Positions 1 through 22,975 are shown, numbered from the stretch's first letter. The stretch: 64,000 nucleotides of DNA from an archaeon UBA583 (GCA_002506365.1 DAXK01000024.1:30944-94943), one strand, 5' to 3'. Numbers and translations are program-made. The notes: generated from the sequence alone by a model not told the origin.

Positions 1-599
1 AAATCTAAACTTAAAATTAAATTTCTAAAAGAAGGTTCAGTTAAATCTAAAAATTGTGCATCAATCTTTTTAACATCATAAACTGGTAAAACTCTAAACT
101 CAACTGGAAAAAATTCAACTAAACCATTTGAATCATAAACAATAATATCTGAAGAAAATTTTTTATTAAATAAATTATTAGAATCTACTGAATCAGATAA
201 ATATAAACTCTTTGAAATCTTAAGTTTCTCCCCAGGTAAAATTCTATACTTCTCAACAGAACTAGAATTAAACTCACTAAAAAAAGAAAAAATTTCATCA
301 TAAGAAACATTAATAGTCATCTCATCTAATCCAACATTTTCAACTACCAAACTAAACATAGTATTTGAATTATTATAAATTCCAACATAACTATTTGACC
401 CATCAAAATTAATTTTATACACTAAAGAAGAATTCCCACAATCAATATAACAATTTAAAGAATTCTCTCCACTTGAACAAAAATTATCTCCACAAAAAAG
501 ATTTTCCTTAAAACCATCTTGTGCTGAAAAACCAACAAATGTAAAACTTAAAACTAATACAAAAAATAAAATAAATTTATTTAAAAAATTAAAATTCAT
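1..599 (-). CDS. Secreted protein, N-terminal part only (continues past the left edge): signal peptide, four-Cys module, beta-rich domain
   Basis: ATG at 597-599 on the minus strand lies 1 nt after the stop of 601..5634. My translation is MNFNFLNKFILFFVLVLSFTFVGFSAQDGFKENLFCGDNFCSSGENSLNCYIDCGN.... It is absent from the ORF track because it is open at the window edge. The Cys module matches those in the 1677-aa protein. Confidence 0.6.
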   Translation of the reverse strand, partial: MNFNFLNKFILFFVLVLSFTFVGFSAQDGFKENLFCGDNFCSSGENSLNCYIDCGNSSLVYKINFDGSNSYVGIYNNSNTMFSLVVENVGLDEMTINVSYDEIFSFFSEFNSSSVEKYRILPGEKLKISKSLYLSDSVDSNNLFNKKFSSDIIVYDSNGLVEFFPVEFRVLPVYDVKKIDAQFLDLTEPSFRNLILSLD

Positions 600-600
600 T

Positions 601-1776
601 TTAATTTTTCCCTCCATGTTTATTCATAAAATCCTTTAAATTCTCAATATACACTTCAACCATTCTAAATCTTCCTTCCTTTAATTTATTCTTAGCTAAC
701 TTTAAATCCATTCTAACATCTTCAACATTAGTCCCTCTAGCCTCTAAAGCATCAATAAACCCTGAAACTTGTTTTAAATAATTTGAATAATTCATATACT
801 TAACCAATAACTCATCAGATAACTTATGAGGATTATGAACAGGTGGTTTAATATCTACAAACCAAGGTCTTCCCTCATTATAATGAGGATTTTGAAATAA
901 CCCAGTCCCAATACTCATCCTAGTAATTCTCTCAGCATAAATTTCTCCATATTTAGATTTAGCCTTTGCAATATCAGACATACTCTTAGTATTTAATTGA
1001 ATCTCAGTTAAAACATTTCCTTGTAAAGCTTCCTTAAAATCCGCACTTACTTGTGAAACCATCAATACTCCAATTCCCCACTTTCTAAATTCTCTCGCTG
1101 CTTTCTCTAAAGCTAAATATCCCCCTGAACCTCCATACTTTTCTAACATCCTATGGATTTCATCAAACACTAAAAGCATCTTTAACCTATTAGCTTCTCC
1201 CCACTTCATTTGGAAAATTGTATCAACAATATTTGAAACAGCAATATCATACTCACCAGCTTTCAAATTATTTAAATTAAAAATTGTAACTTCACCTGGA
1301 TTCATATAATCCTTAAAATCTAAATCAAACTTAGGAGTATCAACATTATAAATAATTCCCTTATATGATTTAACATCATCCTCAGACATTCCAAACTTTT
1401 TAAAATACTTTAAAATATTTTCATCCTTATTACTACCTAAAAATCCAGTCCACTGCGCAGTTGGATCAAAAATTACTACAGGAATATTTTTATCTAAAAC
1501 TCCCTCAACAAATACTGAAGAAGTAACAGACTTACCTGAACCAGTAGAACCTGCAACCAAACCATGAGTTAAAAAATCATTAACATCAAAATAAGCTGGT
1601 TTATTAGTCCCACCAATCTTTCCAATTAAAACAGTTGAATCTCCATTAACAGGTAACTTTTTCAAATCAGGAATAATATATTTGGATTTTTTAAATAAAT
1701 TATCTCTATAATTTTTATAAAATCTATATCCAACATATACAACAATAGGAACAATAATAATTAATAATAATAAAAT
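601..1776 (-). other. TM helix (nt 1726-1776) plus cytoplasmic P-loop ATPase domain of FtsK/HerA/VirB4 type
   Basis: Walker A HGLVAGSTGSGKSV is at nt 1528-1551 and Walker B MLLVFDEIHR at nt 1159-1176. GIGVLMVSQ follows, then a C-terminal coiled-coil tail. The motif pattern matches DUF87/HerA-like ATPases as I recall them. Confidence 0.75.
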
Positions 1777-4700
1777 TTTTCTATCTGTTGTCCAAAAACT
1801 TACAGCATACTTAAAATTTTCTGAAATTTCAATTGTCTCAGACCCAACAGTCATAAAAACTGAAAACTTATACTCACCAATAGGTAAACTTGAATTTGCA
1901 AAATTACTAAACCCTAAAATCTTTTCATAATTTTTTCCATTCTCAACTAATAAACTTTCCTTTTTTTCTAAATAAATTGAATCATTTAAATTTGCACTAT
2001 CCCCAATACTTGAAATTACATACATAACCTCAGCATTAAATTTATCTGAATCCTTATTATCCACATCAAAATTAAACTCAAAATAATCTGAAGTAAAAAC
2101 ACTATCCTCAAGCTCTAAATTAATATCAATAGTTGACCTATTAATAATATTAATTGCTAAAGGTAATTGCTTTAACCCTCCTTTCTCTGAATACACTAAA
2201 ACATTTCCAGAAACTAAACCTAAATCAGAATCAGCTGGAATCTCAACTTTAAAATTTAATTGATTTTGAGTTCCAGGAACCAAAGTTAATTCTGTTTCCT
2301 CAAAAGTAATATATTCTTGTAAATTATTTGTAACACCAAATCTAAAAGTTTTCTCCTCCTCTAATTTTGAAATTAAATAATAAATAACATCCTTACTAGT
2401 TCCAACTTTAATATTTGGACTTAAATAATTTGTATAATGACCAAAAGGAAACTCTAAACAATCCTCAGCACAGTTTCTTAAATCCTCACCATTATCACAA
2501 ATAAAATTTCCACAAGTTAAATATAAAAAAGCTTGAGGACTACAATCCTCTGAACAACTTTGAGGATTCTCCCCAGTATTAACATCACAAATATTATCTC
2601 CACAACTTCCCTTAATATCAAATAAATCTTCAATAACTCCACCAGCACCACCAGCACCAGAAGCTGTAGCACCTGAACCTCCAGCCCCAGATGATGAACT
2701 ACTTGAAGAACTACTTCCTGAACTTGAACTTCCACCAGATGAACCTCCTGAACTTCCACCAGAACTTCCTCCTCCTGAAGAAGAACCTCCTGAACTTCCC
2801 CCATTAGAACCTCCAGAATTATCTTCATTCTCATTTCCTTGACCAGAATTTCCAGTATCACTATCACTAGCTAACTTTTGAGTTGTTAAAATATATGAAC
2901 TCATATTTTTAGTTGAAAAATATGCTAAAAAATTTTCTTCATCAATCTTAACCGGTCTTAAATCAACCCAATCACTAGCATTACAATCATTAGGATTAAA
3001 CTCACTACACTTTTTAAATAATAACTCACCTGGATTAAAAACCTGTGAATTTTCTAAAGATTTATCTAAAAACTTTTTATAATTAATTTTAATTTCAGCT
3101 TCACTAAAACTTGTTTTATTAGCATCAACTGAAAAAGTAAGTAAACTTGTATTTACAGGTAAATCAACTAAAACATCATTAAAATCTGTAACAACAACTG
3201 GATTTGAAACCGTATTTGTATTATTAATTAAATCAAAAGTTGAATCCTTAAATAAAATATTAACTTGATTAACATTTGAAACATCTTCTCTATCAGTAAT
3301 CTCAAAATCAACATTTAAATTAATTTTTCTATTTGAACTTTTAATATTTTGAGAATTATTATTATAATCCACAGTCACACTATCAAAAATTACCTCATTT
3401 GAATCTGGAGAAAATGAAGTTAAATTTAATTTCACATAAGGATTAGTATTATTAATTTTTAAAACAATCTCTGGAAAAGTATCTAAATAATTTGACTTTA
3501 AACCCCTATTAGAACTACTATCATTTGCAAAAGCAACTAAAATATATTCCTTATTTAAATTAAAATTATTTAAATCAAAACTATACTTATTTAACCCTAA
3601 ATCAGATGAAACTAAACTTGAAAATTCAGAAACATACTTCGCATTAAAACTTGACCTAAAAGATAAACTCTTATTTAAATCATTATTTTTAATAACAAAA
3701 GATACATCTTTCCCATTTAAAGATTCATAATTATAATAATTTCTAAAATTATCCAAACTTAACTTATAATCATAATCAACAACAATATTTTTAAATTCAA
3801 ATTGTCCTGGACTATTAGTAATTACTCTAACTGGAACTCTACAAGTATCCTCAATAATTGAATGCTCACTTAAAATTCCTAAACCATAAAGCATTGAATA
3901 ATCTAAACTATAAATGTCAAAAATATAATTAAACCTCCACTTATCAACCTCACAAGTTTTAAATCCTTTATTTAACTTTGAAATAAACTTAACATTTGAA
4001 AAAGTTTTACCAACAGTTAAATTTGAAACATTATCAATTAAAACTGAAGTATTTAAACCAACACTAATATTATAATTAATATTTTCATCAAAATCAATAA
4101 TTTCTAAATAATTACTAGTTAAAGTTTTCTTTGACTTTTGATACTCATCTAAAACATCAACTCTAAAATTTTTAGGTAAATAACTTCCAAGTTCACTAAA
4201 CCTTTTCAATTCCAAAAAAGAAGTAACTAAATCTTGATAAAAAACAATTTCCCCACCAGCTAAAGTAACTACAACAATATCCCTATTTAAACTATCTGTA
4301 TAAGTCTCAACTCCTTTAGGTCTTAAACCAGAAATTGAATCTAAATTATTAAAATTCCCAGCATCAAAAACTAAAACTCTATTATTCAAATAATCTGAAA
4401 TAAATAACTTTCCAAAATTAAACTCAACATCAATTGGAGACTTTATAAAATCCTCAGACCCAATCGCAAAAATTGATTGTGAAAAAGCTAAACTAGAAAA
4501 ATTCGTCTCAGAATTTGACATTAAAAAAGATACAACCTCCGAATTCCCAGAATCAATAGCAACTAAATTAATATTACCATTATAATCAAAAACCTCTAAA
4601 GAAGTTAAATAAGTAAAACTTAAATCCTCTGCCTTTCCAGTTATTTCATAAACCTCAGTAAAATTTAAATCTAAAACTTTAATAGAAGATGAATCTAAAT

Positions 4701-5634
4701 CAATAACAAAATAATTATCATTAAACTTTTTAATATCTGATAATTTATAATTAAAAGAATCCAAATTAAAAGTTGCTAAATCTTGAGAAAACCTAAAAGT
4801 TTTATTACTTGAAACATCAGTTGCAACAACTTTATTATCATAACTAAATAAACCTGAAACTAACTCAAACTCATTTGGAAAACTCCCGATAGAAAATGTT
4901 TTCAAATCTAAATTACTTAAATCAGAAACATCAACTCTATACAACCTTTTATCTAAACTCTCATAAAAATAAATTGAACCATTTAAATAAACTACATCTA
5001 AAATAGAACTAAACTTTTGAGAACCTATTTTTGGAACTAAATCAAAACTTAAATCTGACACAACTGAATTTTTAGGTAACTCAATATAAAAAACATCAGA
5101 ACTTAACCCATTTTTATTAAAATCAAAAGAATTTAAATTTTTATTATTATAATTAAAAGTATTAACCAAACCTAAATTATCTCTAGAAAAAATTACTCTA
5201 TCATTTAATAAAACATCAGCAGAACTACTCTCCCCAGAAAAAATTACATCTAAACTTCCATCAATTAAATAAGAATTACTTGGAACCGCATCAACAATAC
5301 TAACATTAGTATTAGCTGGTAAAGTTAAAGAAAAATTTTCTCCACCACCTAAAATATTAGAATTTAAAACTTTATCAAAATCATAAACTAATCCATAAAC
5401 AGAATCAATTGATGATAAGTCATCAACCATAAATTCTACATTATAAGAATCATTATTAATTCTAACCTTTGAAAAATTCTTAAAATTAGGAGAATAAACA
5501 TCCTTAAAACTAATTGAATCATTTGACTCAACTTCCACATAACCTCTATACTCAACACAATTTCCTATCCCAATAAATAAAATAAATAAAATAAAAATTA
5601 AATTAAATTTTCCTCCAATACTTGACTTATTCAT
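601..5634 (-). CDS. Giant type-I membrane protein: signal peptide, NHL-like beta-propeller ectodomain, G/S linker, two four-Cys modules, beta-sandwich, one TM helix, cytoplasmic FtsK/HerA-superfamily ATPase
   Basis: ORF track gives 1677 aa with an ATG start. N-terminal hydrophobic signal is FNLIFILFILFIGIGNC. NHL-type repeats are present (e.g. GKLFISDYLNNRVLVFD). The TM helix is ILLLLIIIVPIVVYVGY (aa 1287-1303). Walker A is GSTGSGKS and Walker B is LLVFDEIH. Confidence 0.9.
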   Translation of the reverse strand: MNKSSIGGKFNLIFILFILFIGIGNCVEYRGYVEVESNDSISFKDVYSPNFKNFSKVRINNDSYNVEFMVDDLSSIDSVYGLVYDFDKVLNSNILGGGENFSLTLPANTNVSIVDAVPSNSYLIDGSLDVIFSGESSSADVLLNDRVIFSRDNLGLVNTFNYNNKNLNSFDFNKNGLSSDVFYIELPKNSVVSDLSFDLVPKIGSQKFSSILDVVYLNGSIYFYESLDKRLYRVDVSDLSNLDLKTFSIGSFPNEFELVSGLFSYDNKVVATDVSSNKTFRFSQDLATFNLDSFNYKLSDIKKFNDNYFVIDLDSSSIKVLDLNFTEVYEITGKAEDLSFTYLTSLEVFDYNGNINLVAIDSGNSEVVSFLMSNSETNFSSLAFSQSIFAIGSEDFIKSPIDVEFNFGKLFISDYLNNRVLVFDAGNFNNLDSISGLRPKGVETYTDSLNRDIVVVTLAGGEIVFYQDLVTSFLELKRFSELGSYLPKNFRVDVLDEYQKSKKTLTSNYLEIIDFDENINYNISVGLNTSVLIDNVSNLTVGKTFSNVKFISKLNKGFKTCEVDKWRFNYIFDIYSLDYSMLYGLGILSEHSIIEDTCRVPVRVITNSPGQFEFKNIVVDYDYKLSLDNFRNYYNYESLNGKDVSFVIKNNDLNKSLSFRSSFNAKYVSEFSSLVSSDLGLNKYSFDLNNFNLNKEYILVAFANDSSSNRGLKSNYLDTFPEIVLKINNTNPYVKLNLTSFSPDSNEVIFDSVTVDYNNNSQNIKSSNRKINLNVDFEITDREDVSNVNQVNILFKDSTFDLINNTNTVSNPVVVTDFNDVLVDLPVNTSLLTFSVDANKTSFSEAEIKINYKKFLDKSLENSQVFNPGELLFKKCSEFNPNDCNASDWVDLRPVKIDEENFLAYFSTKNMSSYILTTQKLASDSDTGNSGQGNENEDNSGGSNGGSSGGSSSGGGSSGGSSGGSSGGSSSSGSSSSSSSSSGAGGSGATASGAGGAGGVIEDLFDIKGSCGDNICDVNTGENPQSCSEDCSPQAFLYLTCGNFICDNGEDLRNCAEDCLEFPFGHYTNYLSPNIKVGTSKDVIYYLISKLEEEKTFRFGVTNNLQEYITFEETELTLVPGTQNQLNFKVEIPADSDLGLVSGNVLVYSEKGGLKQLPLAINIINRSTIDINLELEDSVFTSDYFEFNFDVDNKDSDKFNAEVMYVISSIGDSANLNDSIYLEKKESLLVENGKNYEKILGFSNFANSSLPIGEYKFSVFMTVGSETIEISENFKYAVSFWTTDRKILLLLIIIVPIVVYVGYRFYKNYRDNLFKKSKYIIPDLKKLPVNGDSTVLIGKIGGTNKPAYFDVNDFLTHGLVAGSTGSGKSVTSSVFVEGVLDKNIPVVIFDPTAQWTGFLGSNKDENILKYFKKFGMSEDDVKSYKGIIYNVDTPKFDLDFKDYMNPGEVTIFNLNNLKAGEYDIAVSNIVDTIFQMKWGEANRLKMLLVFDEIHRMLEKYGGSGGYLALEKAAREFRKWGIGVLMVSQVSADFKEALQGNVLTEIQLNTKSMSDIAKAKSKYGEIYAERITRMSIGTGLFQNPHYNEGRPWFVDIKPPVHNPHKLSDELLVKYMNYSNYLKQVSGFIDALEARGTNVEDVRMDLKLAKNKLKEGRFRMVEVYIENLKDFMNKHGGKN
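2455..2610 (-). other. Two tandem four-Cys modules, C-G-[DN]-x-[IF]-C-x(2-4)-G-E-[ND]-x(2,3)-C-x2-D-C
   Basis: Translated as SCGDNICDVNTGENPQSCSEDC and TCGNFICDNGEDLRNCAEDC. A third copy, CGDNFCSSGENSLNCYIDC, is in the downstream ORF at about nt 437-499. Confidence 0.6.
2641..2868 (-). repeat. Low-complexity Gly/Ser-rich linker encoded by imperfect short tandem DNA repeats
   Basis: Encodes SDSDTGNSGQGNENEDNSGGSNGGSSGGSSSGGGSSGGSSGGSSGGSSSSGSSSSSSSSSGAGGSGATASGAGGAGG. The DNA shows reiterated ccagaacttcc/cctgaacttcc-like units. Confidence 0.8.
4230..5000 (-). other. NHL-like beta-propeller repeat region of the 1677-aa protein
   Basis: About six repeats of hydrophobic-x-D-x2-N/S-x-R/K-hydrophobic-x-hydrophobic-F/D type: SIYFYESLDKRLYRVD, VVATDVSSNKTFRF, YFVIDLDSSSIKVLD, LVAIDSGNSEVVSF, LFISDYLNNRVLVFD, VVVTLAGGEIVFY. 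Confidence 0.5.
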
Positions 5635-14600: not shown

Positions 14601-17600
14601 CTTGGACTAATTTGAGCATTACTAAAATCATCATAAAAAACCACATCATTTTGTGAAACATTTTCAAATACTGGTAAAGTTGGATTTAAATTTCCTGATA
14701 AAATAACTCCCACTTTAAACTCACCAACATTATAATCACATGTAGGTTTTAAAGCACTAAAACATTGACCATTTGAATTTGTTAAAGAATCCTCATAAAT
14801 CGTTCTTTGCCCTAAACTATTTTCAACAAACCAATCACACCTATACCCAGACCAAGTTCCAGTATATTCTGAAGATGCAATAGCTAAACCATTTCCAGTG
14901 GTAATTTGAGCTGAAATACTTTCTAAAGAATTATTATGTCTAGAATACTCATCCTCTGTTGTAATTTGAATATTTAATACATCATCAACACTTAATAAAA
15001 CAGAAGTATTAACAACCGCATACATTAAAGAATCAACACTAGCTTGTAAATCAATTGAACCAAATACGTCAGCTGGAATAATCCAATTATCATTTTGTTT
15101 AGTTGAAATAACTGAAAAATCTCCAGTATCCGTTTCTAAATATTTCCAGAAAACATCACCATTATTAACATTTACAGAATTTCCACAAGAATCTAAAATT
15201 CCTAAATCAAAAACTAAATTATCTCCTGTATCATAAGCAATTGAATTAACTGGTGAATCAATAGATAAAGTAATATTATCTTTTAAGAATACTGAATCAG
15301 TTAAATTAGTATCTACAAAATACTTATTAGTATTATAATTAGTTAAATAAATTTCATAATTAATTTGACCTAAAGCAATTGAACACACATTTAAATTTGG
15401 AATATTTTTGATAAAACTTGTAAAAGTACACTTCCCATTTGAATCAGAAGTAACTGTTTTAGTTTCACCTAAAATTTCCAAATTACAATAAACTCCTTGT
15501 TCAGTAATAATATTATTCTCACTATTTGTTAAACTTACAACTAAATCCTCATTTGAAGTTCTAAAAATTGTAGCACCTAAATTAGCACTTGCAAGTAAAT
15601 CAGATTTAAAAGTTTGATTTAAAACTTCAGACTGAAAATCATCAAACCCTTTTGATGAAACAACAACATAATAATAATAAGTATCTGGATTATAAAAACT
15701 AGGTAATTGTAAACTACATGTTGAATTTCCAACATTTGATAAAGTATTTCCTAACAAACTAGGATTATTTCCAACTGAATCAGTTTGATAATAATTACAA
15801 ATAATATCTCCTAAATTTGGAGCATCTAAAGTCCCATTTTCATAAACATTAATTACTAAATCTCTAGATAAACCAGTATCAACTTTCACAATATCTAATT
15901 GTCTATTTAAAACTTCAAAAGTTCCTTGTTCAATAATTTTATCTCCTAAATAATTTTTAGAAACTCTCTCAAAATCTTTAACAATAATTTTATAATTAAC
16001 AATTCCAACATAATTATTTCCTAATTGAAAATTAACTTCTCTATTAACTCCAACACCAGGAGTTGTTGAAATATTTTCAACTGATAAATTTACCCACTTA
16101 CTTTGTTTTAAACTATAAACTTGAAAAATTACTTGAACATCATCACCCTCTAAATCTAAAACTGAATAATTTAATTTTTGATTTCTATTTCTCTCAAAAG
16201 AATATGAATCAAAAGTTACATTTGAAACACTAGGTCTATCATTAATTAAACCAAAAGTTCCATAAGAAATTTCTTCCCCATTATCTAATTGTTCAATAAC
16301 AAAATTAATTTCACTTACATTTTCATTAACAATTTGTGAACACGCATAATAATTTTTACCATTTAAATTAAACTTTGTATAAAAATCAGTTAATACTTTT
16401 TCAGATCCTTTCACAAAATCATCTAAATAACAATTATTAATTGGACTTAAACTAACATTTGAGATAGACAAATTATTTTCATCCTTAACTAAAAAATTAA
16501 TGCTTGAATAAGAATTATCAGATAAATCAATTGAATTAATTTTACTCACAACATAATTAATACTTGAAGTTGAATAACTTGAATTTAAACTAATTTTTTT
16601 ATTTAAATAATTTCCAAGTAAATTTGAATCTAAAGTGCTTGAACTCTCAATCACTGGAACTACTTTATCATTATATAAAAAATAATCCTTATCACGATTA
16701 ATAGAATAAAATAATCCAAAATCACATCCATTTGAAAACCCTTCTTTATCTAAATCTTGAAAACTTGAACTATCACAAGAATTTACAATTAAACTATTTT
16801 TATCATAAACTTCAATTCCTCCAACAACATAACCTGGTAAATTTGAAAACTTTTTAATTTTTAAAGGAGCAAAATCATTATTATAATTAATCTGAACCCC
16901 ATCAGCAAAATAACTTTGCCCAGCAAATAAATTTGATTTAAAATTAAAGTTATCAACTAAAACTTCACTAACTAATTCATCTGAATCTAAACTAAAAATC
17001 ATTGTTAAATCAGCTAAAAATTCTGGATTAAAATTTGAAGTTACAAATTTTAATGGAACAAAAATATCCATAATTCCAGAAAAGACTTCAGAACTCATAA
17101 AACTATTAACACTACCATTTAAATTCGGTAAAGTTATTTTATTCACAAAATCATCTACATAATTATAACTTGATACTCCATCAACTAATATTTCAATTCC
17201 ATCAATTGCAGATAAAGATAATTTAGTTACATCATAACCTGAACTTGCTAAAATAACTCCAGTAGTTGTCTTATCAACTTCAAAATTATTAAAATATTTA
17301 TCAATTGTTAAAACTCTTTTTTGTGAAAAAGTATTATCAAAAATTACAAACTTAGAAACTCCAGAATCTTTTGTAACCACAATAATTTCATCTCTTAAAT
17401 CTCCTAAAACATCAAGTTTTAAAACATCAACTAAAACACCATCCGCGTTTAATAAATTTCCAGTCTTAAAAACATTCAAATTATAATCATAAACTACATA
17501 ATTTAAATTAGAATTAATCACAAATAATTTATCAGTAACTTCAAATTTAGGTTTATTAAATCCTGTAAAAGAATCAATTAAATTCCCTTCACTTGAATAT

Positions 17601-20600
17601 ACAAATAACTCATTTTCATTTGAAACAAAAATTTCTTTCCCAATATCTGTTGTTAAATCATTTGAAACTAAATATCTATATGAAAACCCACTAATTGATT
17701 TCTCAAATAATTCATTTCCTAAAGAATCATAAGCTACTAAATTTCCTAAACTTGAAATTCCAACATACTCATCACCAACTAATTGTTCAAAATTATAATA
17801 TGAAAAATCAACTTCTCCTGACAATAAACTTAAAACTCCAGCAGTATCTGAAAAACTATTTCCAGACTTTGAACTAACTAAACCTAAATTAAACTGATTA
17901 TCTTGATCACAATTAAAACAACTAAAAGAAACATTCTTAGCTTGATTACAAGAAATAGGAACTGACACCTCACTAAAATCATAACTATTTGTAACCTTTA
18001 CATCTAAAATTAAACCACCATTTGTTGTTAAATTTCCTAAAGCTAAATTATCTGAACTTGTTAAAGTTTTAGCAAAAAATATATTTGCATTCTCAGAACA
18101 TAAATCACATTTAATATTTAACTTATCAGGAATTTGATTACAACTAACACTCACATCTAAACTACTATTATCTTCAAGATTAGTTCCTAATACATTAAAA
18201 TACGGACTCGAAGAAATTGAATTTGAATTATAATTAATTACTCCTTGTGAAACATTAAAAACTGGAACAGTATAATAATTATTTCCATCACAATTTGGAC
18301 AATTAAAATTATAACTCTTAGAAGATAAATCCTCACAAGAAACAGGAACTGAAACTTTATCAAAATTATAACTTGTATAAGTTTCATAAGAAACTTCCGC
18401 TGTAATATTTCCAACAACTCTTACACTATTTTGAGTATCACAACTAGCGCAACTTAAAGTTAAATCATTATTCTCTAAAGCATTACAACTAACTTTTCCA
18501 GTTACAACTTGATAATCTAAAGATTCTTTAGTATAAACTTCAAATAAAGGATTTAAATTATTTGTTGAATAATACTCTTTAGTTGAATTTCCATATTCAA
18601 TAAATGAATTTAAATCATACTTAGATTGATTTTGTAAACCTAACTCAAAATAATTACTATTATCACAACCTGAACAAGAAATTGAAACTTGAGGTTTAGT
18701 TTCCAACAATGAACAAGGAACATCAAACTCAACTGGACTAGCAGTTGGACTACAAGCTGAAACAGTATTTGAATCAATATTAAAAGTATTTGAACTAAAA
18801 AATACTTCTAAATTATTTGAACCAACTCCATTATAACAAGTATCCAATTTAACTTTACAAGTTTTAAACTTAGAAACATCACCAATAAATAAATTTGTAT
18901 CAAAAACAAAATTATCTGATAAACTAACTTCATTATTTTTACCAATTAAAACTGAATCAGATTTATCAAAACTATCTTGAGCTGTATACTCAATAAAATT
19001 CTTTTTACTAACAGTTGCTAATGAAACTAAATCTGAATCAGTAACTACATCAAAACTTAAATCTAATCCAGACATATCTCCAACTCCTACAACTCCAACT
19101 GAAACTTCACAAATTTCAGCATTAGTATTAGATAGATTATTTGAAATTACTTGAGTAGCAGAATCTAAATCAAAATAATTTATAACATTTAAAACATCAA
19201 AATTTTTATAGCTTTGGTATCCAGAACTTAAAATTGAATTAGTATCTAATTTAACTGAACTTGATCCAACATCTAAAAATAAATCATTTTTAACTCCAAC
19301 AGATGAAACTCCAAAATCAACATAACAAGCATCCCCGGACACACTAAAAGGAACATCAATTGTTAATTGAGAACTTGAAGTAATATCTAAAACAGACTTA
19401 GGAACTTCATTTGCAAAAGTTTTCTCATCAAAATTAGTAATTAATTTTAAATTAGATAAATCCATTGAAACTGTTGAATTATCCTTTAATTTAAATGTAA
19501 TATCATTCCCTAAAACTCCTAAATTATTAACTCCCGCCTTAAAACTTAAATCGCAAGTTTCCCCATTTAAATTTTTATAAGTTAAATCAGTTGATAATAA
19601 TTTATTTTTTAAAGATAAAAAACTATCAGGAGTTACTCCAGACTCAATATCATAATTTGAATCAAAAATAATTGAAGAATCAATTTGATAGTTATTACCA
19701 TCAATTGAAACATTAACATCAGGATTTCCTAATTTTGTTGATTTAAAAAACACATTACAACTATTCCCAACACCAATACCTAAAGAAGATAAATTTACAA
19801 AAATTTCTGAACTAGTATTTAAACTTAAAACTAAATCAGTTAAATCTGATTTTAAAACATTTGAATATCTTGTATAAGAACTAAAACTATCAAAAACATC
19901 ATACAAAATTAACTCATCATTTGAAATTTTACTAACACTTGAAAAATCATTAGTCCAAACACCTAAAGAATCCCCATAAATTAAAACATTACTCCTACCT
20001 CCAAACTCTCCAAAACTTAAAAAATTAATTTCATTGATAAACTCAGAACTCCACAAAACATTACTCAAATTATCTGAACTTAAAACTTTCAATTTATTAT
20101 TTGAAAAAACTGCAAAATTATTTTGATAAATTCCAGAATTTAAAAATAATAAATTATCAACATTAATTGAATATTTTTCTGACTCAATTGAATTTTTCTC
20201 AAAAGATAAAACAGACTCAGAATTTAAAACTACTTTACTTCCATTAACAAAAGCTGGAACTCTAAATAAATATTCTCCAGAATTATTAACTAACAAATAA
20301 GACTCATTATTTTCACAACCAACAACACCCAGTCCATAAAGACTACAACTCTCAATTAAAATTGAACCAGCTAAATCAAAATCTCCGGCTAATTTGTAAT
20401 CAATATATTTCAAACTAACAGTTTGAATTAAAGTATTTGATGAATCAAAAAAATTAATAGATGTATTTTCAAATAAATTTAAATTTTTATTTTCTAAAAT
20501 AACTTTCCACCTTTTTTTATAATAATCATCTGCAACTGTATAAGTTTGTCCTAAAACAGCTAAATTTTCTAAACTCCAAATTGGATCATTAGAACTTAGA

Positions 20601-20812
20601 TCTTTTGTTGAACTTATAGAAAGAACTTGTGAATTTAAATTTATAAATTCAAAACTCAATCCCATATCATCATAATCTAAAGTTTCAAAATAAATTGTAA
20701 CCTCACTAGAATTTTCTGATATGAAAACATCTCCAAACTGGAAACTGTAAACATTTGAAATAAACATTAAAAATGTTATGAAATAAATAATTTTGTGAAG
20801 TAATTTTTCCAT
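5627..20812 (-). CDS. Giant secreted surface/adhesin-like protein (about 5061 aa from the ATG)
   Basis: One uninterrupted ORF. The track start at 20818 is TTG. An in-frame ATG at 20810-20812 sits about 26 nt from a TATA-like box. N-terminal signal is LLHKIIYFITFLMFISNVYSF. Content includes beta-propeller-like repeats, many Ig/Big-like modules (TDSNGKCTF, TDNLGTCEINW, TDVLGTCKILW), a possible CBM-like module near nt 6470-6900 (..EGAFYVDRFELF) and an A/G/S linker (nt 6241-6310). No C-terminal TM helix is seen. The stop overlaps the next ATG. Confidence 0.9.
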   Translation of the reverse strand: MEKLLHKIIYFITFLMFISNVYSFQFGDVFISENSSEVTIYFETLDYDDMGLSFEFINLNSQVLSISSTKDLSSNDPIWSLENLAVLGQTYTVADDYYKKRWKVILENKNLNLFENTSINFFDSSNTLIQTVSLKYIDYKLAGDFDLAGSILIESCSLYGLGVVGCENNESYLLVNNSGEYLFRVPAFVNGSKVVLNSESVLSFEKNSIESEKYSINVDNLLFLNSGIYQNNFAVFSNNKLKVLSSDNLSNVLWSSEFINEINFLSFGEFGGRSNVLIYGDSLGVWTNDFSSVSKISNDELILYDVFDSFSSYTRYSNVLKSDLTDLVLSLNTSSEIFVNLSSLGIGVGNSCNVFFKSTKLGNPDVNVSIDGNNYQIDSSIIFDSNYDIESGVTPDSFLSLKNKLLSTDLTYKNLNGETCDLSFKAGVNNLGVLGNDITFKLKDNSTVSMDLSNLKLITNFDEKTFANEVPKSVLDITSSSQLTIDVPFSVSGDACYVDFGVSSVGVKNDLFLDVGSSSVKLDTNSILSSGYQSYKNFDVLNVINYFDLDSATQVISNNLSNTNAEICEVSVGVVGVGDMSGLDLSFDVVTDSDLVSLATVSKKNFIEYTAQDSFDKSDSVLIGKNNEVSLSDNFVFDTNLFIGDVSKFKTCKVKLDTCYNGVGSNNLEVFFSSNTFNIDSNTVSACSPTASPVEFDVPCSLLETKPQVSISCSGCDNSNYFELGLQNQSKYDLNSFIEYGNSTKEYYSTNNLNPLFEVYTKESLDYQVVTGKVSCNALENNDLTLSCASCDTQNSVRVVGNITAEVSYETYTSYNFDKVSVPVSCEDLSSKSYNFNCPNCDGNNYYTVPVFNVSQGVINYNSNSISSSPYFNVLGTNLEDNSSLDVSVSCNQIPDKLNIKCDLCSENANIFFAKTLTSSDNLALGNLTTNGGLILDVKVTNSYDFSEVSVPISCNQAKNVSFSCFNCDQDNQFNLGLVSSKSGNSFSDTAGVLSLLSGEVDFSYYNFEQLVGDEYVGISSLGNLVAYDSLGNELFEKSISGFSYRYLVSNDLTTDIGKEIFVSNENELFVYSSEGNLIDSFTGFNKPKFEVTDKLFVINSNLNYVVYDYNLNVFKTGNLLNADGVLVDVLKLDVLGDLRDEIIVVTKDSGVSKFVIFDNTFSQKRVLTIDKYFNNFEVDKTTTGVILASSGYDVTKLSLSAIDGIEILVDGVSSYNYVDDFVNKITLPNLNGSVNSFMSSEVFSGIMDIFVPLKFVTSNFNPEFLADLTMIFSLDSDELVSEVLVDNFNFKSNLFAGQSYFADGVQINYNNDFAPLKIKKFSNLPGYVVGGIEVYDKNSLIVNSCDSSSFQDLDKEGFSNGCDFGLFYSINRDKDYFLYNDKVVPVIESSSTLDSNLLGNYLNKKISLNSSYSTSSINYVVSKINSIDLSDNSYSSINFLVKDENNLSISNVSLSPINNCYLDDFVKGSEKVLTDFYTKFNLNGKNYYACSQIVNENVSEINFVIEQLDNGEEISYGTFGLINDRPSVSNVTFDSYSFERNRNQKLNYSVLDLEGDDVQVIFQVYSLKQSKWVNLSVENISTTPGVGVNREVNFQLGNNYVGIVNYKIIVKDFERVSKNYLGDKIIEQGTFEVLNRQLDIVKVDTGLSRDLVINVYENGTLDAPNLGDIICNYYQTDSVGNNPSLLGNTLSNVGNSTCSLQLPSFYNPDTYYYYVVVSSKGFDDFQSEVLNQTFKSDLLASANLGATIFRTSNEDLVVSLTNSENNIITEQGVYCNLEILGETKTVTSDSNGKCTFTSFIKNIPNLNVCSIALGQINYEIYLTNYNTNKYFVDTNLTDSVFLKDNITLSIDSPVNSIAYDTGDNLVFDLGILDSCGNSVNVNNGDVFWKYLETDTGDFSVISTKQNDNWIIPADVFGSIDLQASVDSLMYAVVNTSVLLSVDDVLNIQITTEDEYSRHNNSLESISAQITTGNGLAIASSEYTGTWSGYRCDWFVENSLGQRTIYEDSLTNSNGQCFSALKPTCDYNVGEFKVGVILSGNLNPTLPVFENVSQNDVVFYDDFSNAQISPRISPLYTTGQADDVFYGNENQLSLEFSDSCNNFESSIANPIWSYVDSSRGVDLIFGDGFNVSYIPSSIMRGSSSVVVNLNDSTYYRFGNVIENITIVNTAKITDLIVPSYLTPNAVNQISCRVSVSGVSDLSFYQTEFDVGGNRFNVSTDSNGLAVLNINSNTLNTGAQEVYCRIYDFENPNYKIEADNSTYQFKELNLPDDLSIIGNVIFGNREYDLTKSSIGNIIYPHNMNNYTVYRKSIYPLYGPEKLYAGVEFATIGAVGTSKEGQQILVDGANVSMSIYRTSNGNLIDTVSCIQDPNKSNLGLTNPRDSIDNYHLKNCNLEWNPDNLPVGEYNVVISAAVPGQTGWTSEVYNADFEIWGILNSTLTIPAENARLVVNQNNNFNTHVYDEFGTRLDSSSVSVDYLIRDASENCYGVYLGTVSGGSDNTFAKTMNIYSINNYVVNDYRINDNWKIFTKSYGDFYETLDTYSSYELGPVHTCNYFWKERTFIDENNIYFDYPVNVDMITPEAAIIAPIDIGENSGKMKFVCRVRTFHGTAVPYAPTKLSCDGCNTINPTITQNGDSTGIIEKYITPVVSDYGNSYDFTCDVDNLLNIGNGNRLVVSGPATRNVLMSETLGTGWGDLPENYTFPTLSVGAYSDSSCSQPVTWVKSANAGDVYIGFSTSKGSDDLQSYRIEQSPITGSFPGPTPSEGSLIAAADSKCVRFSAMTKSNGVNAYTFKVKIQDESLVSQGSFFEKSVTVYIDDVGPKVQTITVEKPYYKPGANANVFVNLNPLTIGVDGLNDMKDIRYSEDTAYDKSFSKDSEGNWSASVVVPGSSGTNTFNLRIRDQSLYKDDKTFSIFVDDTEPTINTATVDSGCAGLPLTYGTACSPNTNFQIDVSDDNQIDRVRVTGSGLGNIYDSGTNGVNAGTFSKLDMVKNTNSLGDGTYAITFEAWDEAGNRGFTTVNLKVIKTGVVLNSLTQSKTYLSGTGDTADITGTVSSNVDLTIKEVISQSVNQCVASGQSCGVSAAIDASGFVEGKNTVTITAKDSLDNPTSKNFDFYLDTTLPVVTITTLVNDQYVKGSISVKANVVDVNRDNSLVSFTIGSCTETMTYISANQFSKSFDTTKPCVGGDGTKTLTVSATDKSGKVGSQSIDLKIDNTLPVVVISDPADGLVTENTHKVLATITEANFANAKAKVDSEVETLMICSGSGLTRNCEFDVITTGYSDGDHSVTVKATDNSGNQKSLVRNFKIDNNAPTINIYKVSNSDGRAYTSGIDGNYISGNMKLFATINDAADEGVDTTYDCIVDGTTYDMVSEGADAYSCTIDTTGISDGTYIFTVQAKDTLDNLNSKTVSLNVDNLNPVITGESFSGSLIKSGDSQTFSLTAGEPLYDICKVFYSDNGVLDGGDDEIVSVAVSGNTCGTTYSMSEGAGVSGNKFILVELTDRAGNKAVKSYDFVLDNAAPIIRSFGITNAEPSSPVTGGFPGVSPLKNMSWSSWVDENNGVNNLSRVYIRPVSGIGVDTNLREDLVYNGGINRFELTDKLPTYFGGTEGTTVFEVVAQDLVGNVGTDDFTFFISNSPPVINSVTSDVALLEVAEQSVVITSNITATPVTLRDLTFNIAEPDGNTFVYNFPQGGFTSPDSFDSYTFTPRVAGFHSVEVVATNIGNKNQTQTFTNVFNAVGTTSGSLTLSPQVSNADPIYVGEDYSFDLQVKLDNDGLARMKNSQLIFSGDGLKVDATNSIVNCGTILTGNFCLTTVRVTLDENVGNGNKLFFVLSNWKNVDSSNGFVSDTFTVNIDPTNRVRIISNELEKFDLNVGFNPQNIGLVNIQNYGNDKLDNVDISIYNGTLKQGLDNSDFTISFTPASYSSLAVSESKTFSMDMFSATARGNYNGYLKVDSTECLDDTCRSFVFTNISIFGKADSDFVQTVPLNNVIDKSSNVVTSLLATQGAIDFHCKYFDSLNVNSLIQNYPAELVLDSNLGESILLSNNTYNLSGPNVPGSLQYIWNFTTYSPGDYSLICRPKDDDSNFVKAGAQAVRNVTLIGNIIPTISYDYPATCLGSLYLYDSIACNNVNVTVNLKDFYGYPVINSQVNFTTNATEFNTLDQIGSCYTDNLGTCEINWNPDVLTAGIYNVSVLAGKSYYNSGNTSSEIQILGGYGLKILSPLDNILIYQDNYNFDFEVTDIDGSDITNSLSYNTTWSLESSAGSKVLSSSRAFNWNIDNTVLGNYNLTAKIQIGPDEVIAQRNVVVVRDTLIGSLTVENDILFRESLDILDITQSNVSVLVTDSATGLNVNNSNVMFKLNGVTDLGTCQTDVLGTCKILWNPSINLEAGVHNVSAFVSKQNYYNKSFSDLATVKVYVEPKWNTPSTISGELSNQFNMPLVCEVYESYKTVANPTEKFDTKFYMHKPAVLPKYVLGSVVNVDGVIYSWNSEDATNVTAQFSELFVGFDTKTNISVYETSSPVEDLGFNNLDTVSVEFNELSGGTTWDLLIQTPSGFETVFSGESSLSNSAFIGSNKQIKNVYIVFNGGAGASIKLSKVVLEQTITEETLEIGEAIILGSQFSSNPEVFGNLENFVGEDSIGFRSSANVNSLSSSEFNEDGDRSLGLNVSGVATNGVMDLEWNSPNLNDVSSFASLGFVVNNPNNLTLNLTVSILDETNCLVNFDLGEVKGKLSYPDINLSQFNSICNSNLDKLVLSFENVGQDPVEGAFYVDRFELFKSVLTENALASLNFHPYEYGDFRFSCEISDVANYVVKNSSKEKIIKLINSGSSADAGESAGGASDAAGAAASAGSVLSFELDLIEGDYVSANGAKGELETVKLYNLISSSRTFNISSSNNNLINFEGKNSTIVEMDEDTKVSEFIVSFDTTNIVKAQLEEFLLVTDIVSGESISVPIKLTLVDVNINVINPTSSSKLVDVLGANVYEINSNVEFNSSASYDGEFDKFGYEFKVANEVCETDYYGRVGDGLNIGCMMPFVKSNMLEDLIMRVNLGGSQNE
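9870..12370 (-). repeat. Tandem array of about eight Ig-like (Big/cadherin-like) domains
   Basis: Eight domain boundaries recur roughly every 95-110 aa: YIDDVGPKV, FVDDTEPTI, YLDTTLPVV, KIDNTLPVV, KIDNNAPTI, NVDNLNPVI, VLDNAAPII, FISNSPPVI. Confidence 0.6.
17880..18730 (-). repeat. Five tandem 60-75-aa repeats, each carrying a C-x(9-12)-C-x2-C triad
   Basis: PCSLLETKPQVSISCSGCDNSNYF; SCNALENNDLTLSCASCDTQNSV; SCEDLSSKSYNFNCPNCDGNNYY; SCNQIPDKLNIKCDLCSENANIF; SCNQAKNVSFSCFNCDQDNQF. Confidence 0.65.
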
Positions 20813-20833
20813 ATACAAATTAATATCATTTTC

Positions 20834-20843
20834 TATTTAAAAA
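20834..20843 (-). promoter_or_regulatory. TATA-like box (TTTTTAAATA on the minus strand) upstream of the giant gene
   Basis: It is centred about 26 nt upstream of the ATG at 20812. The same spacing recurs at most genes in the window. Confidence 0.4.
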
Positions 20844-21115
20844 CATCAACATTAACTCTAGTTAGTGACAAACCAAAAGTCCAAATTTTAAACTAAAAAG
20901 CAGAATTTAAGATAGAATCAAGAATTTTAAATTAAAAAAATAACTATTTGAAAATCAAACTATCCACTAGAATTTTTCCTACCAAATATTGCGAGTGGAA
21001 CTAAATAAAAGTAAACTAAAATTTATTTTAAAATAACAACTCGAAAGTAAAATTAAAATGAAAATCAAATAATCTAAGATAAATATATATTAAAATAAAA
21101 ATGATTTAAAAAATA

Positions 21116-22006
21116 TTAATATTTTTCTAAATTTAAAGGATCTAAAATCCATGATAATAATTTAATTAAATATTCTAAAATATAATAATGAATTACTACA
21201 AAAATTGAACTTACAATAGAGCAAAATAAAATAATAAAACTAATCACAACTGAATAAATTAATTTTAAAATTTTAAAAGAATAATCTTCTTGAAAACTCT
21301 TTGCCAAAACTGCCTTATATGCCTTAACATCAAACAATTTATCATCCTCAGTATCTTTTAAATACCTATTAAAATCATCAAAAAACTCATCAAAATCTTT
21401 ACAATTTACAATTTCATTTTTCTGACAAGATTCAATATATCCAGTGATAAAACCTTGCTCATAAGCATCTAATTTATAAGGAACAATAATAGAACCAGAC
21501 TGCTCATTCATTTTATCAATAATTATTAAATATTCATCAACAAACCCAGAATCATCATAAGCAATAAAAAAAATTGTTGAAAATAAAACTCCCAAAATAA
21601 TTAAAACATAAGAATTTAAAATAATTAATTTATCCAAATTAAAATATCTATCTTGCTTAGAAAAATGATAAAAAATAAACAAACTTATAACAACAAAAAT
21701 TAAATAAAAACTACTTAAAGACAAATACCCTAAAGAAAAAGTTAAAATAGTTGAAATAAATAAAGAAATTATCACAAAAATAACCCCAACTAATTTTGAA
21801 AAATAATTTTTAAAAATAAAATATAAAACAAAATCTATCGATAAAAAAGTAAAGGACAAAATCCCCAAAAATAAAATTTCAAATGAACTAAAAAGACCAA
21901 AAACTTTATCATACAAAAAATCAAATAGTAAATTAAAACTTATAAAAGTTAAAGTTAAAAAAAATATAACTAAACTTGAAAAACCTACGAATTTTTTTGA
22001 AAACAT
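21116..22006 (-). CDS. Polytopic membrane protein, function unknown
   Basis: 296 aa with an ATG start. Several N-terminal hydrophobic helices are followed by an acidic soluble segment and a C-terminal helix. I recognise no motif. Confidence 0.6.
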   Translation of the reverse strand: MFSKKFVGFSSLVIFFLTLTFISFNLLFDFLYDKVFGLFSSFEILFLGILSFTFLSIDFVLYFIFKNYFSKLVGVIFVIISLFISTILTFSLGYLSLSSFYLIFVVISLFIFYHFSKQDRYFNLDKLIILNSYVLIILGVLFSTIFFIAYDDSGFVDEYLIIIDKMNEQSGSIIVPYKLDAYEQGFITGYIESCQKNEIVNCKDFDEFFDDFNRYLKDTEDDKLFDVKAYKAVLAKSFQEDYSFKILKLIYSVVISFIILFCSIVSSIFVVIHYYILEYLIKLLSWILDPLNLEKY

Positions 22007-22126
22007 AAATAAATATTATTTCAAGTTGTTAAATATTTAAACTACTACTTTAAAGTAAATTGAATTATTAAACTAAAATAATTAAAATTATTGAAAATAA
22101 AAATAATTTAAATAAAAATAAATTAC

Positions 22127-22975
22127 TTAACGTTTTTTACAAACCACCTTATTTCTACCTTCATCTTTTGCTTGATATAAAGCTGAATCAGCAAGTTCTT
22201 TTAAAACACTAGTATCCCTATAACTATTAGTATAACTTGATACTCCAAAACTACAAGTAATATTCCTATCAACAAAAAAAGAATCTAATTCATCACCAGA
22301 AGTCTCACCAACTATCAATAAATCTTGTCTATGTGAACTTGATAAATCATGAGCAGTAGTATGATTTAACCCATAGTGCCCAATAACTAATCTATCTTCA
22401 ATACTCTCACGAATTCTATTAGCTACAATACCAGCAGATGCTAAATTTGTTTCAGGAAGTAAAATTGAAAATTCCTCACCACCATACCTAAAAGCTACAT
22501 CCCTTGGCCGTAAATTATCCAAAATAATCTTCCCAAAAAGAGTTAAAGTATCATCACCAACAGAATGACCATAAGTATCATTAACAGCCTTAAAATTATC
22601 TAAATCACACATAATATAACTAAAATCAGATGAAGAACAATTCTGAAAATCAACTGACAAAGAATCCAATTTTCTTTCTAAAAAATCACGCTTTCTTAAA
22701 CAAGTTAATTCATCAACAGATAATTTATTAATCTCATTTAATAAATTGGCAGCTAAATCAAAATCACCATCAGCAATATGTTTATTATAACTAGGAGCAA
22801 ATCCATAAATCATAAAATTTTTAAAAAAATCATTTAATTGGCTAGATCTAGAAGTTCGATTTTTATCTAAATCATTAGGCGTTTTCAAAAAATCAATTAA
22901 ATCAAAAAATTCAGAACCACCTTTAAAACCTAAAGACAATTCAACTAAATTCCCAGACCTATCATATAATTTCAT
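22127..22975 (-). CDS. GGDEF-domain protein (putative diguanylate cyclase) with intact GGEEF active site and RxxD I-site
   Basis: DNFKAVNDTYGHSVGDDTL...LRPRDVAFRYGGEEFSILLPET...SFGVSSY...ADSALYQAKDEGRNKV. GGEEF is at nt 22469-22483. RPRD lies five residues upstream of it. Confidence 0.8.
   Translation of the reverse strand: MKLYDRSGNLVELSLGFKGGSEFFDLIDFLKTPNDLDKNRTSRSSQLNDFFKNFMIYGFAPSYNKHIADGDFDLAANLLNEINKLSVDELTCLRKRDFLERKLDSLSVDFQNCSSSDFSYIMCDLDNFKAVNDTYGHSVGDDTLTLFGKIILDNLRPRDVAFRYGGEEFSILLPETNLASAGIVANRIRESIEDRLVIGHYGLNHTTAHDLSSSHRQDLLIVGETSGDELDSFFVDRNITCSFGVSSYTNSYRDTSVLKELADSALYQAKDEGRNKVVCKKR

Follow-up and report, generated by a model that had tools for sequence, protein, structure and literature searches.

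A probable SPEARE-type locus with a split giant gene and a HerA-like membrane ATPase in a low-GC archaeon

Introduction

What kind of system places a giant secreted protein directly beside a membrane-anchored ATPase in an archaeon, and has such a system been described before? The question is raised by a 64,000-nt stretch of DNA from an archaeon UBA583 (GCA_002506365.1 DAXK01000024.1:30944-94943; hereafter the window), which has about 26% GC and archaeal gene content. An earlier reading of the sequence alone (the original prediction) had described five consecutive minus-strand genes at positions 1 to 22,975 and proposed that they encode a novel cell-surface machine: a GGEEF cyclase, a polytopic membrane protein, a secreted giant of about 5061 aa, a 1677-aa protein with a cytoplasmic ATPase, and a further secreted protein. 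Open reading frame (ORF) calling finds all five genes where they had been placed. The region is very probably the upstream two-thirds of a SPEARE-type locus in a low-GC DPANN-like archaeon, and on sequence comparison it appears to be a split member of that known family, not a new kind of system. The statement that no characterised system has this organisation has to be withdrawn: the same organisation has been published as SPEARE (PMC6642349, PMC10266531, PMC8470020).

SPEARE proteins were described in Nanohaloarchaeota, where they reach 8553 aa, are mostly extracytoplasmic with a transmembrane (TM) segment near the C-terminus, and are expressed (Hamm et al., 2019; PMC6642349). Hamm et al. interpreted the highly conserved cytoplasmic part as a type III restriction enzyme and noted homologues in Woese-, Aenigm- and Micrarchaeota and in Altiarchaeales. 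Reva et al. (2023; PMC10266531) reported an architecture of signal peptide, immunoglobulin-like (Ig) domain, two propellers, about 75 Ig domains, TM segment, “VirB4/TraG-like” ATPase and coiled-coil tip; they found that the adjacent next gene encodes another such ATPase, and they proposed an injection “straw” resembling a type IV secretion system (T4SS). Two EX4484-52 metagenome-assembled genomes (MAGs), KA27 and KA24, were also called SPEARE-bearing (PMC8470020). A literature search on DPANN, giant, HerA and transmembrane returned nothing relevant outside these SPEARE papers. SPEARE-type giants are the leading candidate for the apparatus with which DPANN archaea fasten onto hosts and obtain material from them, and a function, if shown, would explain a protein that occupies 3-4% of some of the smallest archaeal genomes.

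The locus and its relation to SPEARE

The genes that carry the argument are the following.

5627-20812, minus strand: giant gene, 5061 aa from the ATG at 20812 (ORF call)
5627-20818, minus strand: the giant gene read from a TTG, 5063 aa (ORF call)
601-5634, minus strand: 1677-aa gene (ORF call); its product is the putative anchored half of a split giant, with signal peptide, variable ectodomain, conserved module, TM helix and HerA-type ATPase (ORF, Pfam, hydropathy)
1-599, minus strand: open ORF, the first 199 codons of a 681-aa short paralog, P0001 (completed from contig L002)

The last of these is the gene that had been taken for a secreted protein; it is in fact the 5′ end of a paralog with ectodomain, TM helix and HerA ATPase, misread because the window boundary cuts it. 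The complete gene is found on L002, a public bioreactor-metagenome contig (AYRE01 / PRJNA226580) that matches window positions 1-10599 at 100% identity; L001, a contig from a different sample, matches at 99.8%. On L002 the cluster runs about 10 kb past the window start, its total length being more than 23 kb, and P0001 is followed on the same strand by a 647-aa coiled-coil gene, a gene for a 1633-aa anchored surface protein and a second GGDEF gene, after which the strand switches and housekeeping genes (HIT, pyruvate kinase) begin.

The likeness to published SPEARE loci extends from the proteins to the gene order. Both have a signal peptide, a huge Ig-rich ectodomain (propeller-containing in the published proteins and possibly so here), a single TM helix near the C-terminus, a conserved cytoplasmic P-loop domain and a coiled-coil tip; in both a short ATPase paralog lies immediately downstream (here P0001, after 1 nt), and in both a coiled-coil gene follows. 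The ATPase is 46-49% identical to the SVXNc_0300, SVXNc_0299, BNXNv and SG9 proteins: specifically, 46% identical to the C-terminus of the 9409-aa SVXNc_0300 (E 1e-144) and 49% identical both to SG9 AQV86_02330, a SPEARE gene listed in PMC6642349, and to the short paralogs of N. occultus and N. haloferacivicina. There are also differences. The SPEARE feature of one very long single polypeptide is present here only as a split pair, a 5061-aa secreted protein without an anchor and a 1677-aa anchored protein with the ATPase. The carrier is a 26%-GC archaeon from a bioreactor and no halophile, and the locus has an additional 1633-aa anchored protein (shared with Woese-like relatives only) and two flanking bacterial-type GGDEF genes. 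Finally, neither laminin-G nor protease nor toxin domains were detected by Pfam and NCBIfam in the SPEARE-type proteins of the window; whether SPEARE proteins have such domains at all is disputed in the literature.

The split giant

Is the separation of giant and ATPase real? The parts of the two proteins that bear on this question are listed first.

9593-12370, minus strand: tandem Ig-like (Big) domain run of the giant (Pfam Big_13 and Big_3_3, periodic [VIL]D[DN]xxPx[IV])
5642-5647, minus strand: Shine-Dalgarno-like GGAGGT, 7 nt upstream of the 1677-aa ATG and within the 3′ end of the giant gene (sequence)
2605-5634, minus strand: variable ectodomain of the 1677-aa protein with its own signal peptide, residues 1-1010 (alignment, hydropathy)
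1786-2604, minus strand: membrane-proximal ectodomain module, residues ~1011-1283 (family consensus, AlphaFold2, Foldseek)
1723-1785, minus strand: single TM helix, residues ~1284-1304, followed by a K/R-rich cytoplasmic flank (hydropathy; helix in the AlphaFold2 model)
604-1722, minus strand: cytoplasmic HerA-clade P-loop ATPase with a C-terminal three-helix coiled-coil tip (Pfam, PDB profile, AlphaFold2, Foldseek)

The giant has a signal-like segment at its N-terminus and, by hydropathy, no further hydrophobic segment, which bears out the expectation that it has no membrane anchor of its own. At residues ~2815-3740 a motif scan for [VIL]D[DN]xxPx[IV] boundaries finds about eight to nine Ig-like units spaced about 100 aa apart. 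The domain content that had been proposed is therefore upheld in part: the roughly eight tandem Ig-like domains are seen by Pfam and by the motif scan, whereas the β-propeller-like repeats and the possible carbohydrate-binding module are neither confirmed nor refuted by profiles, Pfam and NCBIfam giving nothing in the giant beyond Big_13, Big_3_3 and a sub-threshold PliI match. Self-BLAST of the giant returned zero internal repeat pairs at E<=1e-4 because the repeats are too divergent, and the Ig periodicity is visible by motif scan only.

The junctions are as they had been described, an 8-nt overlap and a 1-nt gap joining the last three genes. The sequence ATGAATAA is shared, in different frames, by the giant gene and the 1677-aa gene, and the 1677-aa gene is separated from P0001 by 1 nt; the Shine-Dalgarno sequence together with the 8-nt overlap indicates probable translational coupling between the giant and the 1677-aa gene. 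What makes the pair look like one protein is its alignment to relatives: giant residues ~3490-4430 and 1677-aa residues 226-494, 588-927 and 1011-1672 align in order along the single giant ORFs of loci L006, L007, L074 and L076 (the giant's residues with their distal parts), and the variable ectodomain shows weak collinearity with an internal part of the fused giants of L006, L074 and L076. Because both proteins are collinear with fused giants of relatives, the pair of 5061 and 1677 aa is the split form of a polypeptide that is single elsewhere.

The same collinearity, and an overlap of two ORFs in different frames, are also what one would see if a single giant gene had been made to look like two by an assembly error or a frameshift artefact. 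This explanation, like the view that the adjacency of giant and ATPase is coincidental, is very improbable. The 1677-aa ORF starts with a canonical signal peptide and has GGAGGT ahead of it, two assemblies, each from its own sample (99.8% and 100% identity), show the same structure, and one other locus (L072) also has a large ORF without ATPase upstream of its ATPase gene; coincidence is excluded by conservation across dozens of loci. The split is genuine: a signal peptide and a ribosome-binding site belong to the second half alone, and the two independent assemblies agree. The split gene structure is possibly new. It implies that the fibre is separable from its anchor, which would require a non-covalent docking interface that could be mapped.

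The part of the 1677-aa protein that lies just outside the membrane is conserved. The module consists of a G/S-rich linker, two CGxxxCxxxExxxxCxxDC motifs (the family consensus of the conserved module opens with this motif) and two tandem β-sandwiches resembling Ig or fibronectin type III (FnIII) domains. An AlphaFold2 (AF2) model of residues 1005-1300 (pLDDT 85) has two tandem Ig/FnIII-like sandwiches running into the TM helix, and the best Foldseek matches of the module are WxLIP and RbmA. Judged from the model, it is probably a stalk or scaffold, with nothing conduit-like about it. The topology, called from hydropathy, the K/R flank and the distribution of cysteines (13 in the ectodomain of about 1280 aa, zero in the C-terminal domain), places the ATPase in the cytoplasm.

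The ATPase domain

To which class does the ATPase belong? Pfam matches the C-terminal domain of the 1677-aa protein to DUF87/HerA (E 2e-11), with additional matches to HerA_C and to FtsK_SpoIIIE, the last at 24.2 bits against a cut-off of 24 and spanning 45 residues only. The domain has a Walker A motif (GSTGSGKS), a Walker B motif (LLVFDEIH) and an invariant REFRKWG; in the family consensus Walker A, Walker B (VFDEIH) and several Arg positions are invariant. In a PDB search with phmmer and the family profile the only confident matches are HerA proteins, at 8e-10 to 1e-6 with the profile: Sulfolobus solfataricus HerA (4d2i), SIR2-HerA (8wiv), HerA-DUF4297, HerA-NurA and YjgR. DotL (0.01) and FtsK (0.08) are marginal in the profile search. 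An AF2 model built with 20 homologues (pLDDT 89, pTM 0.86) consists of a long TM helix, a RecA-like core and a three-helix coiled coil; in the modelled piece the TM helix takes up residues 5-38 and the ATPase core starts at about residue 56, some 20 residues after the helix. Foldseek with this model ranks HerA structures first (4d2i, E 3e-12), then FtsK and the TcpA coupling protein. Profiles, model and fold agree with the proposal that the C-terminal domain is a cytoplasmic ATPase of the FtsK/HerA superfamily. None of the three findings that the original prediction had named as telling against it (no FtsK/HerA/VirB4 profile match, an extracellular topology, an unconserved gene pairing) was made.

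HerA itself, whether with NurA or in the anti-phage SIR2-HerA and DUF4297-HerA systems, gives the best profile and fold match and has in common with the window protein the RecA-like core, Walker A and B and a helical C-terminal extension. It differs in its N-terminal HAS barrel: in the AF2 model no HAS barrel is present between the TM helix and the ATPase core, the helix leading almost directly into the core. The window protein is moreover membrane-anchored with an extracellular domain, and it has no NurA, SIR2 or DUF4297 partner; no NurA (or Mre11/Rad50) neighbour was found in the window, on L002 or in the related loci. Because the HAS barrel is absent and there is no NurA neighbour, the ATPase is probably best described as HerA-like and not as HerA sensu stricto. 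NCBIfam matches are partial and far below their cut-offs (HerA 18-38 bits against >=800, CedD 28-36 against 600, and TraD).

Membrane-anchored translocases such as FtsK/SpoIIIE, the VirD4/TraD coupling proteins, the crenarchaeal Ced ATPase for DNA import and EssC of type VII secretion share with the window protein an N-terminal membrane anchor and a cytoplasmic ATPase of the ring-forming superfamily (the ring being presumed for the window protein). FtsK/SpoIIIE, TraD and CedD appear as weak profile matches, and FtsK and TcpA among the fold matches. They differ from the window protein, which has one TM helix against their two to five and a large extracellular domain, and which comes with no γ/DNA-recognition domain, relaxase or CedA-like polytopic partner. 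FtsK/SpoIIIE in particular has a multi-span anchor, which is missing here, and FtsK ranks below HerA by fold; as for Ced, the CedD score is the low one given above, and no CedA-like gene was identified in the neighbourhood.

These results bear directly on two published interpretations. Reva et al. (2023) proposed a “straw” in which the giant binds the host and VirB4/TraG-like ATPases inject effectors, as in type IV secretion. There are weak matches in the P-loop region to TrwB_AAD_bind, T4SS-DNA_transf, TraD and TraC, the ATPase genes lie in tandem as in PMC10266531, and TcpA, a coupling protein, appears in the fold matches. However, HerA ranks above every T4SS ATPase by both profile and fold, VirB4 is absent from the PDB profile and fold matches, and the T4SS models match the P-loop region only, at or below their cut-offs. 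PF03135, the VirB4 N-domain that the literature ascribes to the short paralog, gave no match at up to E=1 in P0093 and P0084, two published short paralogs, nor at up to 0.05 in the window paralog. No VirB6-, VirB8- or VirB10-like genes are conserved nearby in the related loci, and the membrane-proximal ectodomain, with its two solid Ig-like sandwiches, offers no conduit. An injection straw is unlikely on this evidence. The assignment to the HerA clade, lacking the VirB4 N-domain, is possibly new and weakens the “type IV secretion” label.

Hamm et al. (2019) read the same domain as a restriction endonuclease that degrades imported host DNA. The weak ResIII (PF04851) match on the P-loop region noted in PMC6642349 is found here as well, but ResIII is a helicase/ATPase model and no nuclease, and it scores under DUF87/HerA and, for the window proteins, under its own cut-off. 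No nuclease domain was found in Pfam, NCBIfam or the fold search, and Reva et al. (PMC10266531) came to the same conclusion. With its ResIII match confined to the P-loop region, the restriction-endonuclease reading was rejected; its probability is extremely low.

Conservation and partner genes

How widely is the combination of giant and ATPase conserved? More than 266 homologues of the ATPase (typically 620-690 aa) were found at about 50% identity in Woese-, Nanohalo-, Aenigmat- and Nanoarchaeia. A scan of species-representative genomes (one per species) gave at least 584 loci, among them those of KA27 and KA24, and 79 loci were retrieved for comparison. The ATPase motif lies on an ORF of >=2000 aa in 48 of 78 loci; many of these long ORFs end at the 10-kb flank, and one has 9407 aa. 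Giant and ATPase are a single polypeptide or adjacent genes in relatives, by alignment and by the same 48 of 78 loci, and the functional link that had been proposed between them is strengthened.

The most constant partner is the coiled-coil protein. A homologue of the coiled-coil core (residues ~170-395) of the 647-aa protein (L002 12227-14170, plus strand) lies directly downstream of the ATPase gene in 61 of the 69 loci with enough downstream sequence. Among these is the published locus of Ca. Nanohalococcus occultus (SVXNc; hhalign 99.9%). Apart from its coiled-coil core the 647-aa protein has neither a signal peptide nor a TM segment, and a profile of the partner family against PDB and Pfam gave generic coiled-coil matches only (MCP, SNAP-25, Baculo_PEP_C). 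This near-universal downstream partner is possibly new; it is not mentioned in the SPEARE papers PMC6642349, PMC10266531 and PMC8470020. In many copies a small helical “GW...I” motif is found at a terminus, and the 647-aa copy has two AT-hook-like motifs (KGRPKK, KRGRPKKK) in a K/E-rich tail that are not in the homologues compared.

Other partners are restricted to parts of the family. Homologues of the 1633-aa protein (L002 14179-19080, plus strand) occur in about nine Woese-like loci only, including L003, L005, L006, L007, L009, L010, L017 and L065. The protein is secreted, with a C-terminal anchor and repeated CxF..D.SC motifs; its only profile matches are sub-threshold ones of the (α/α)6 type (GH127 catalytic, C5-epimerase), and it might be a glycan-active surface protein. 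In Aenigmatarchaeota (loci L019, L021, L027, L036, L039, L042 and L056, at about 1-2100 on the plus strand) another conserved gene precedes an ATPase-bearing giant of about 2950 aa; its product is secreted, about 650 aa long, has a C-terminal TM anchor and a basic tail, and is 37-63% identical among loci. The family also occurs on a 1.9-Mb contig of the non-DPANN archaeon Candidatus Hydrothermarchaeum profundi JdFR-18 (L022), with an ATPase giant of more than 3700 aa and the coiled-coil partner. Some matches carry Heimdallarchaeota or Methanosarcinales MAG labels (labels as deposited).

The short paralog and tandem pairs

What does the short paralog add? P0001 (681 aa) has a signal peptide, the Cys module CGDNFCSSGENSLNCYIDC, an Ig-like ectodomain of about 250 aa, a TM helix, a HerA ATPase (DUF87 E 9e-11, from the L002 sequence) and a coiled-coil tip, so that it is little more than the core module of the family. 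It shares 80% protein identity and 86% nucleotide identity with the ATPase domain of the 1677-aa protein. A long ATPase ORF with a short paralog directly after it is found in 13 of the 79 loci. Within a genome the two ATPase domains are 65-97% identical, mostly above the identity of either to any other genome, and the ectodomains of the pairs diverge far more than the ATPase domains. For the tandem pairs of L002, L004, L005, L006, L014, L062, L071 and L075 the ATPase identity is 76-97% and the best match in another genome is often 58-82%.

The pattern points to either concerted evolution by gene conversion or repeated recent duplication, and the signs of concerted evolution between tandem ATPase domains are possibly new. 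Near-identity of the long and short ATPase domains suggests that the two may co-assemble.

Possible mechanisms

What could such a protein do? From the comparison of loci and the models, the core module of the family comprises about 660 aa. Its extracellular part has a small Cys motif and two Ig-like sandwiches; a single TM helix then leads to a cytoplasmic HerA-clade ATPase with a coiled-coil tip. In most relatives this module is the C-terminal end of one giant, exported by Sec, that has 2000 to more than 9000 aa and is made of Ig-like and propeller-like domains. The ATPase domains may form a hexameric ring beneath the membrane, as other FtsK/HerA-superfamily enzymes do, possibly mixed from long and short paralogs and bearing the coiled-coil protein on its tip. 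Outside the cell, the fibre would attach to a partner cell or surface, and ATP hydrolysis would drive a macromolecule across the archaeon's membrane at the contact; given the HerA/FtsK affinity, nucleic acid would be the best-fitting cargo. Transport of DNA or another macromolecule is plausible by analogy, and the mechanism of ring, fibre and macromolecule movement as a whole is put forward tentatively, with odds clearly against it.

A more specific form of the proposal is that the conserved module (Ig-like stalk, TM helix, HerA-type ring and coiled-coil tip), together with the linked cytoplasmic coiled-coil protein, is a hitherto unrecognised DPANN-wide, contact-dependent nucleic-acid pump, in which a mixed long/short ring imports or exports DNA or RNA where the fibre meets the host, controlled in this archaeon by horizontally acquired cyclic di-GMP (c-di-GMP) cyclases. 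This is rather unlikely. Were it true, the pump would supply nucleotides and genes to genome-reduced archaea and would be an archaeal counterpart of conjugation or of Ced, with components that are not homologous to a T4SS.

Several observations weigh against transport at a host contact. With one TM helix per protomer a ring would have at most six, which is ill-suited to a DNA-sized pore, and Foldseek finds plain Ig-like sandwiches, and nothing channel-like, in the ectodomain module. Nor is a nuclease, relaxase, pilin or polytopic channel protein conserved nearby in the related loci, and the HAS barrel is lacking. The high ATPase identity within pairs could be explained by recent independent duplications, which do not require co-assembly. 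Hydrothermarchaeum, no known symbiont, carries the family, so a strictly host-directed role is not assured.

The main rival, with the injection straw and the restriction enzyme less likely, is an adhesin with a servicing or signalling motor: ATP would be used to assemble, tension, retract, cluster or release the fibre, or to signal through the coiled-coil partner, and nothing would be transported. One TM helix per protomer and the lack of a channel partner fit this picture, as do the covalent fusion of ATPase and fibre in most genomes, a conserved cytoplasmic coiled-coil protein that could be a scaffold or adaptor, and the presence of the family in a non-DPANN archaeon. On the other hand, the known rings of the HerA/FtsK superfamily work on a polymer that passes through them, and we know of no precedent for a purely mechanical anchoring role of such a ring. 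The strong conservation of the ATPase (about 50% identity across phyla, with many invariant residues) also suggests interaction with a conserved substrate. A servicing motor is possible but doubtful. Transport by a ring beneath the fibre is kept as the working proposal for the locus.

Promoter motifs, GGDEF genes and other genes of the window

Do the two upstream genes belong to the same system?

21116-22006, minus strand: polytopic membrane protein gene, 296 aa (ORF and hydrophobic segments)
22127-22975, minus strand: GGDEF gene, 282 aa (ORF and Pfam)

There is no support for counting them as parts of the machine: the 79 related loci contain no homologue of either, and each has its own AT-rich spacer beside it. 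The first and second GGDEF genes and the 296-aa gene were accordingly dropped as conserved components, with the qualification that upstream flanks in those loci are often occupied by the giant gene and are poorly sampled. The 296-aa protein has five hydrophobic segments and no family match in Pfam or NCBIfam. A TATA-like TTTAAATA lies at 20834-20841 on the minus strand, 22-29 nt upstream of the giant's ATG, and is a candidate promoter element; a second copy lies at 22034-22041 on the minus strand, 28-35 nt upstream of the ATG of the 296-aa gene. In such AT-rich DNA the box is weak evidence (62 copies of TTTAAATA in the 64-kb window against 41 expected), and it was discarded as proof of a single operon, the motif being too frequent in the DNA of the window. 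The two copies hint at separate promoters, in which case the upstream genes need not share the giant's transcript.

Elsewhere the window encodes LonB, Nre, diphthamide synthase, an ATP-dependent DNA ligase, an archaeal-type PheRS and FtsZ; scans of its 64 kb for tRNAs and against Rfam gave no match. The DNA ligase ORF (59876-61309, plus strand, 477 aa) stops within its adenylation domain, of which Pfam positions 2-152 of 204 are covered; an OB-fold domain is missing downstream in every frame, and the next ORF encodes an unrelated Cys-rich protein of 113 aa.

The 282-aa product is predicted to be a bacterial-type GGDEF diguanylate cyclase: it matches Pfam GGDEF at E 2e-38 and TIGR00254 at 135 bits, and it has a RYGGEEF active site and an RxxD I-site (RPRD). 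A second GGDEF gene (L002 19193-20047, plus strand) is 40% identical to the first, so that the cluster has a GGDEF gene at either end; each has an RxxD I-site and GGEE[FI]. For the first gene the nearest full-length homologues come from Psychromonas, a gammaproteobacterium, at 50-55% identity, which suggests that the gene may have been acquired horizontally. To our knowledge c-di-GMP signalling is essentially undescribed in archaea. Bacteria do place giant adhesins under c-di-GMP control, as in LapA with LapD and LapG, and the cluster resembles that system in having a giant Ig-repeat surface protein beside GGDEF genes; unlike it, the cluster has no LapD, LapG or type I secretion genes, and at other loci GGDEF genes are not conserved neighbours. 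A 67%-identical GGDEF copy lies after PheRS α/β in a related archaeal contig (L083), in the same synteny as in the window.

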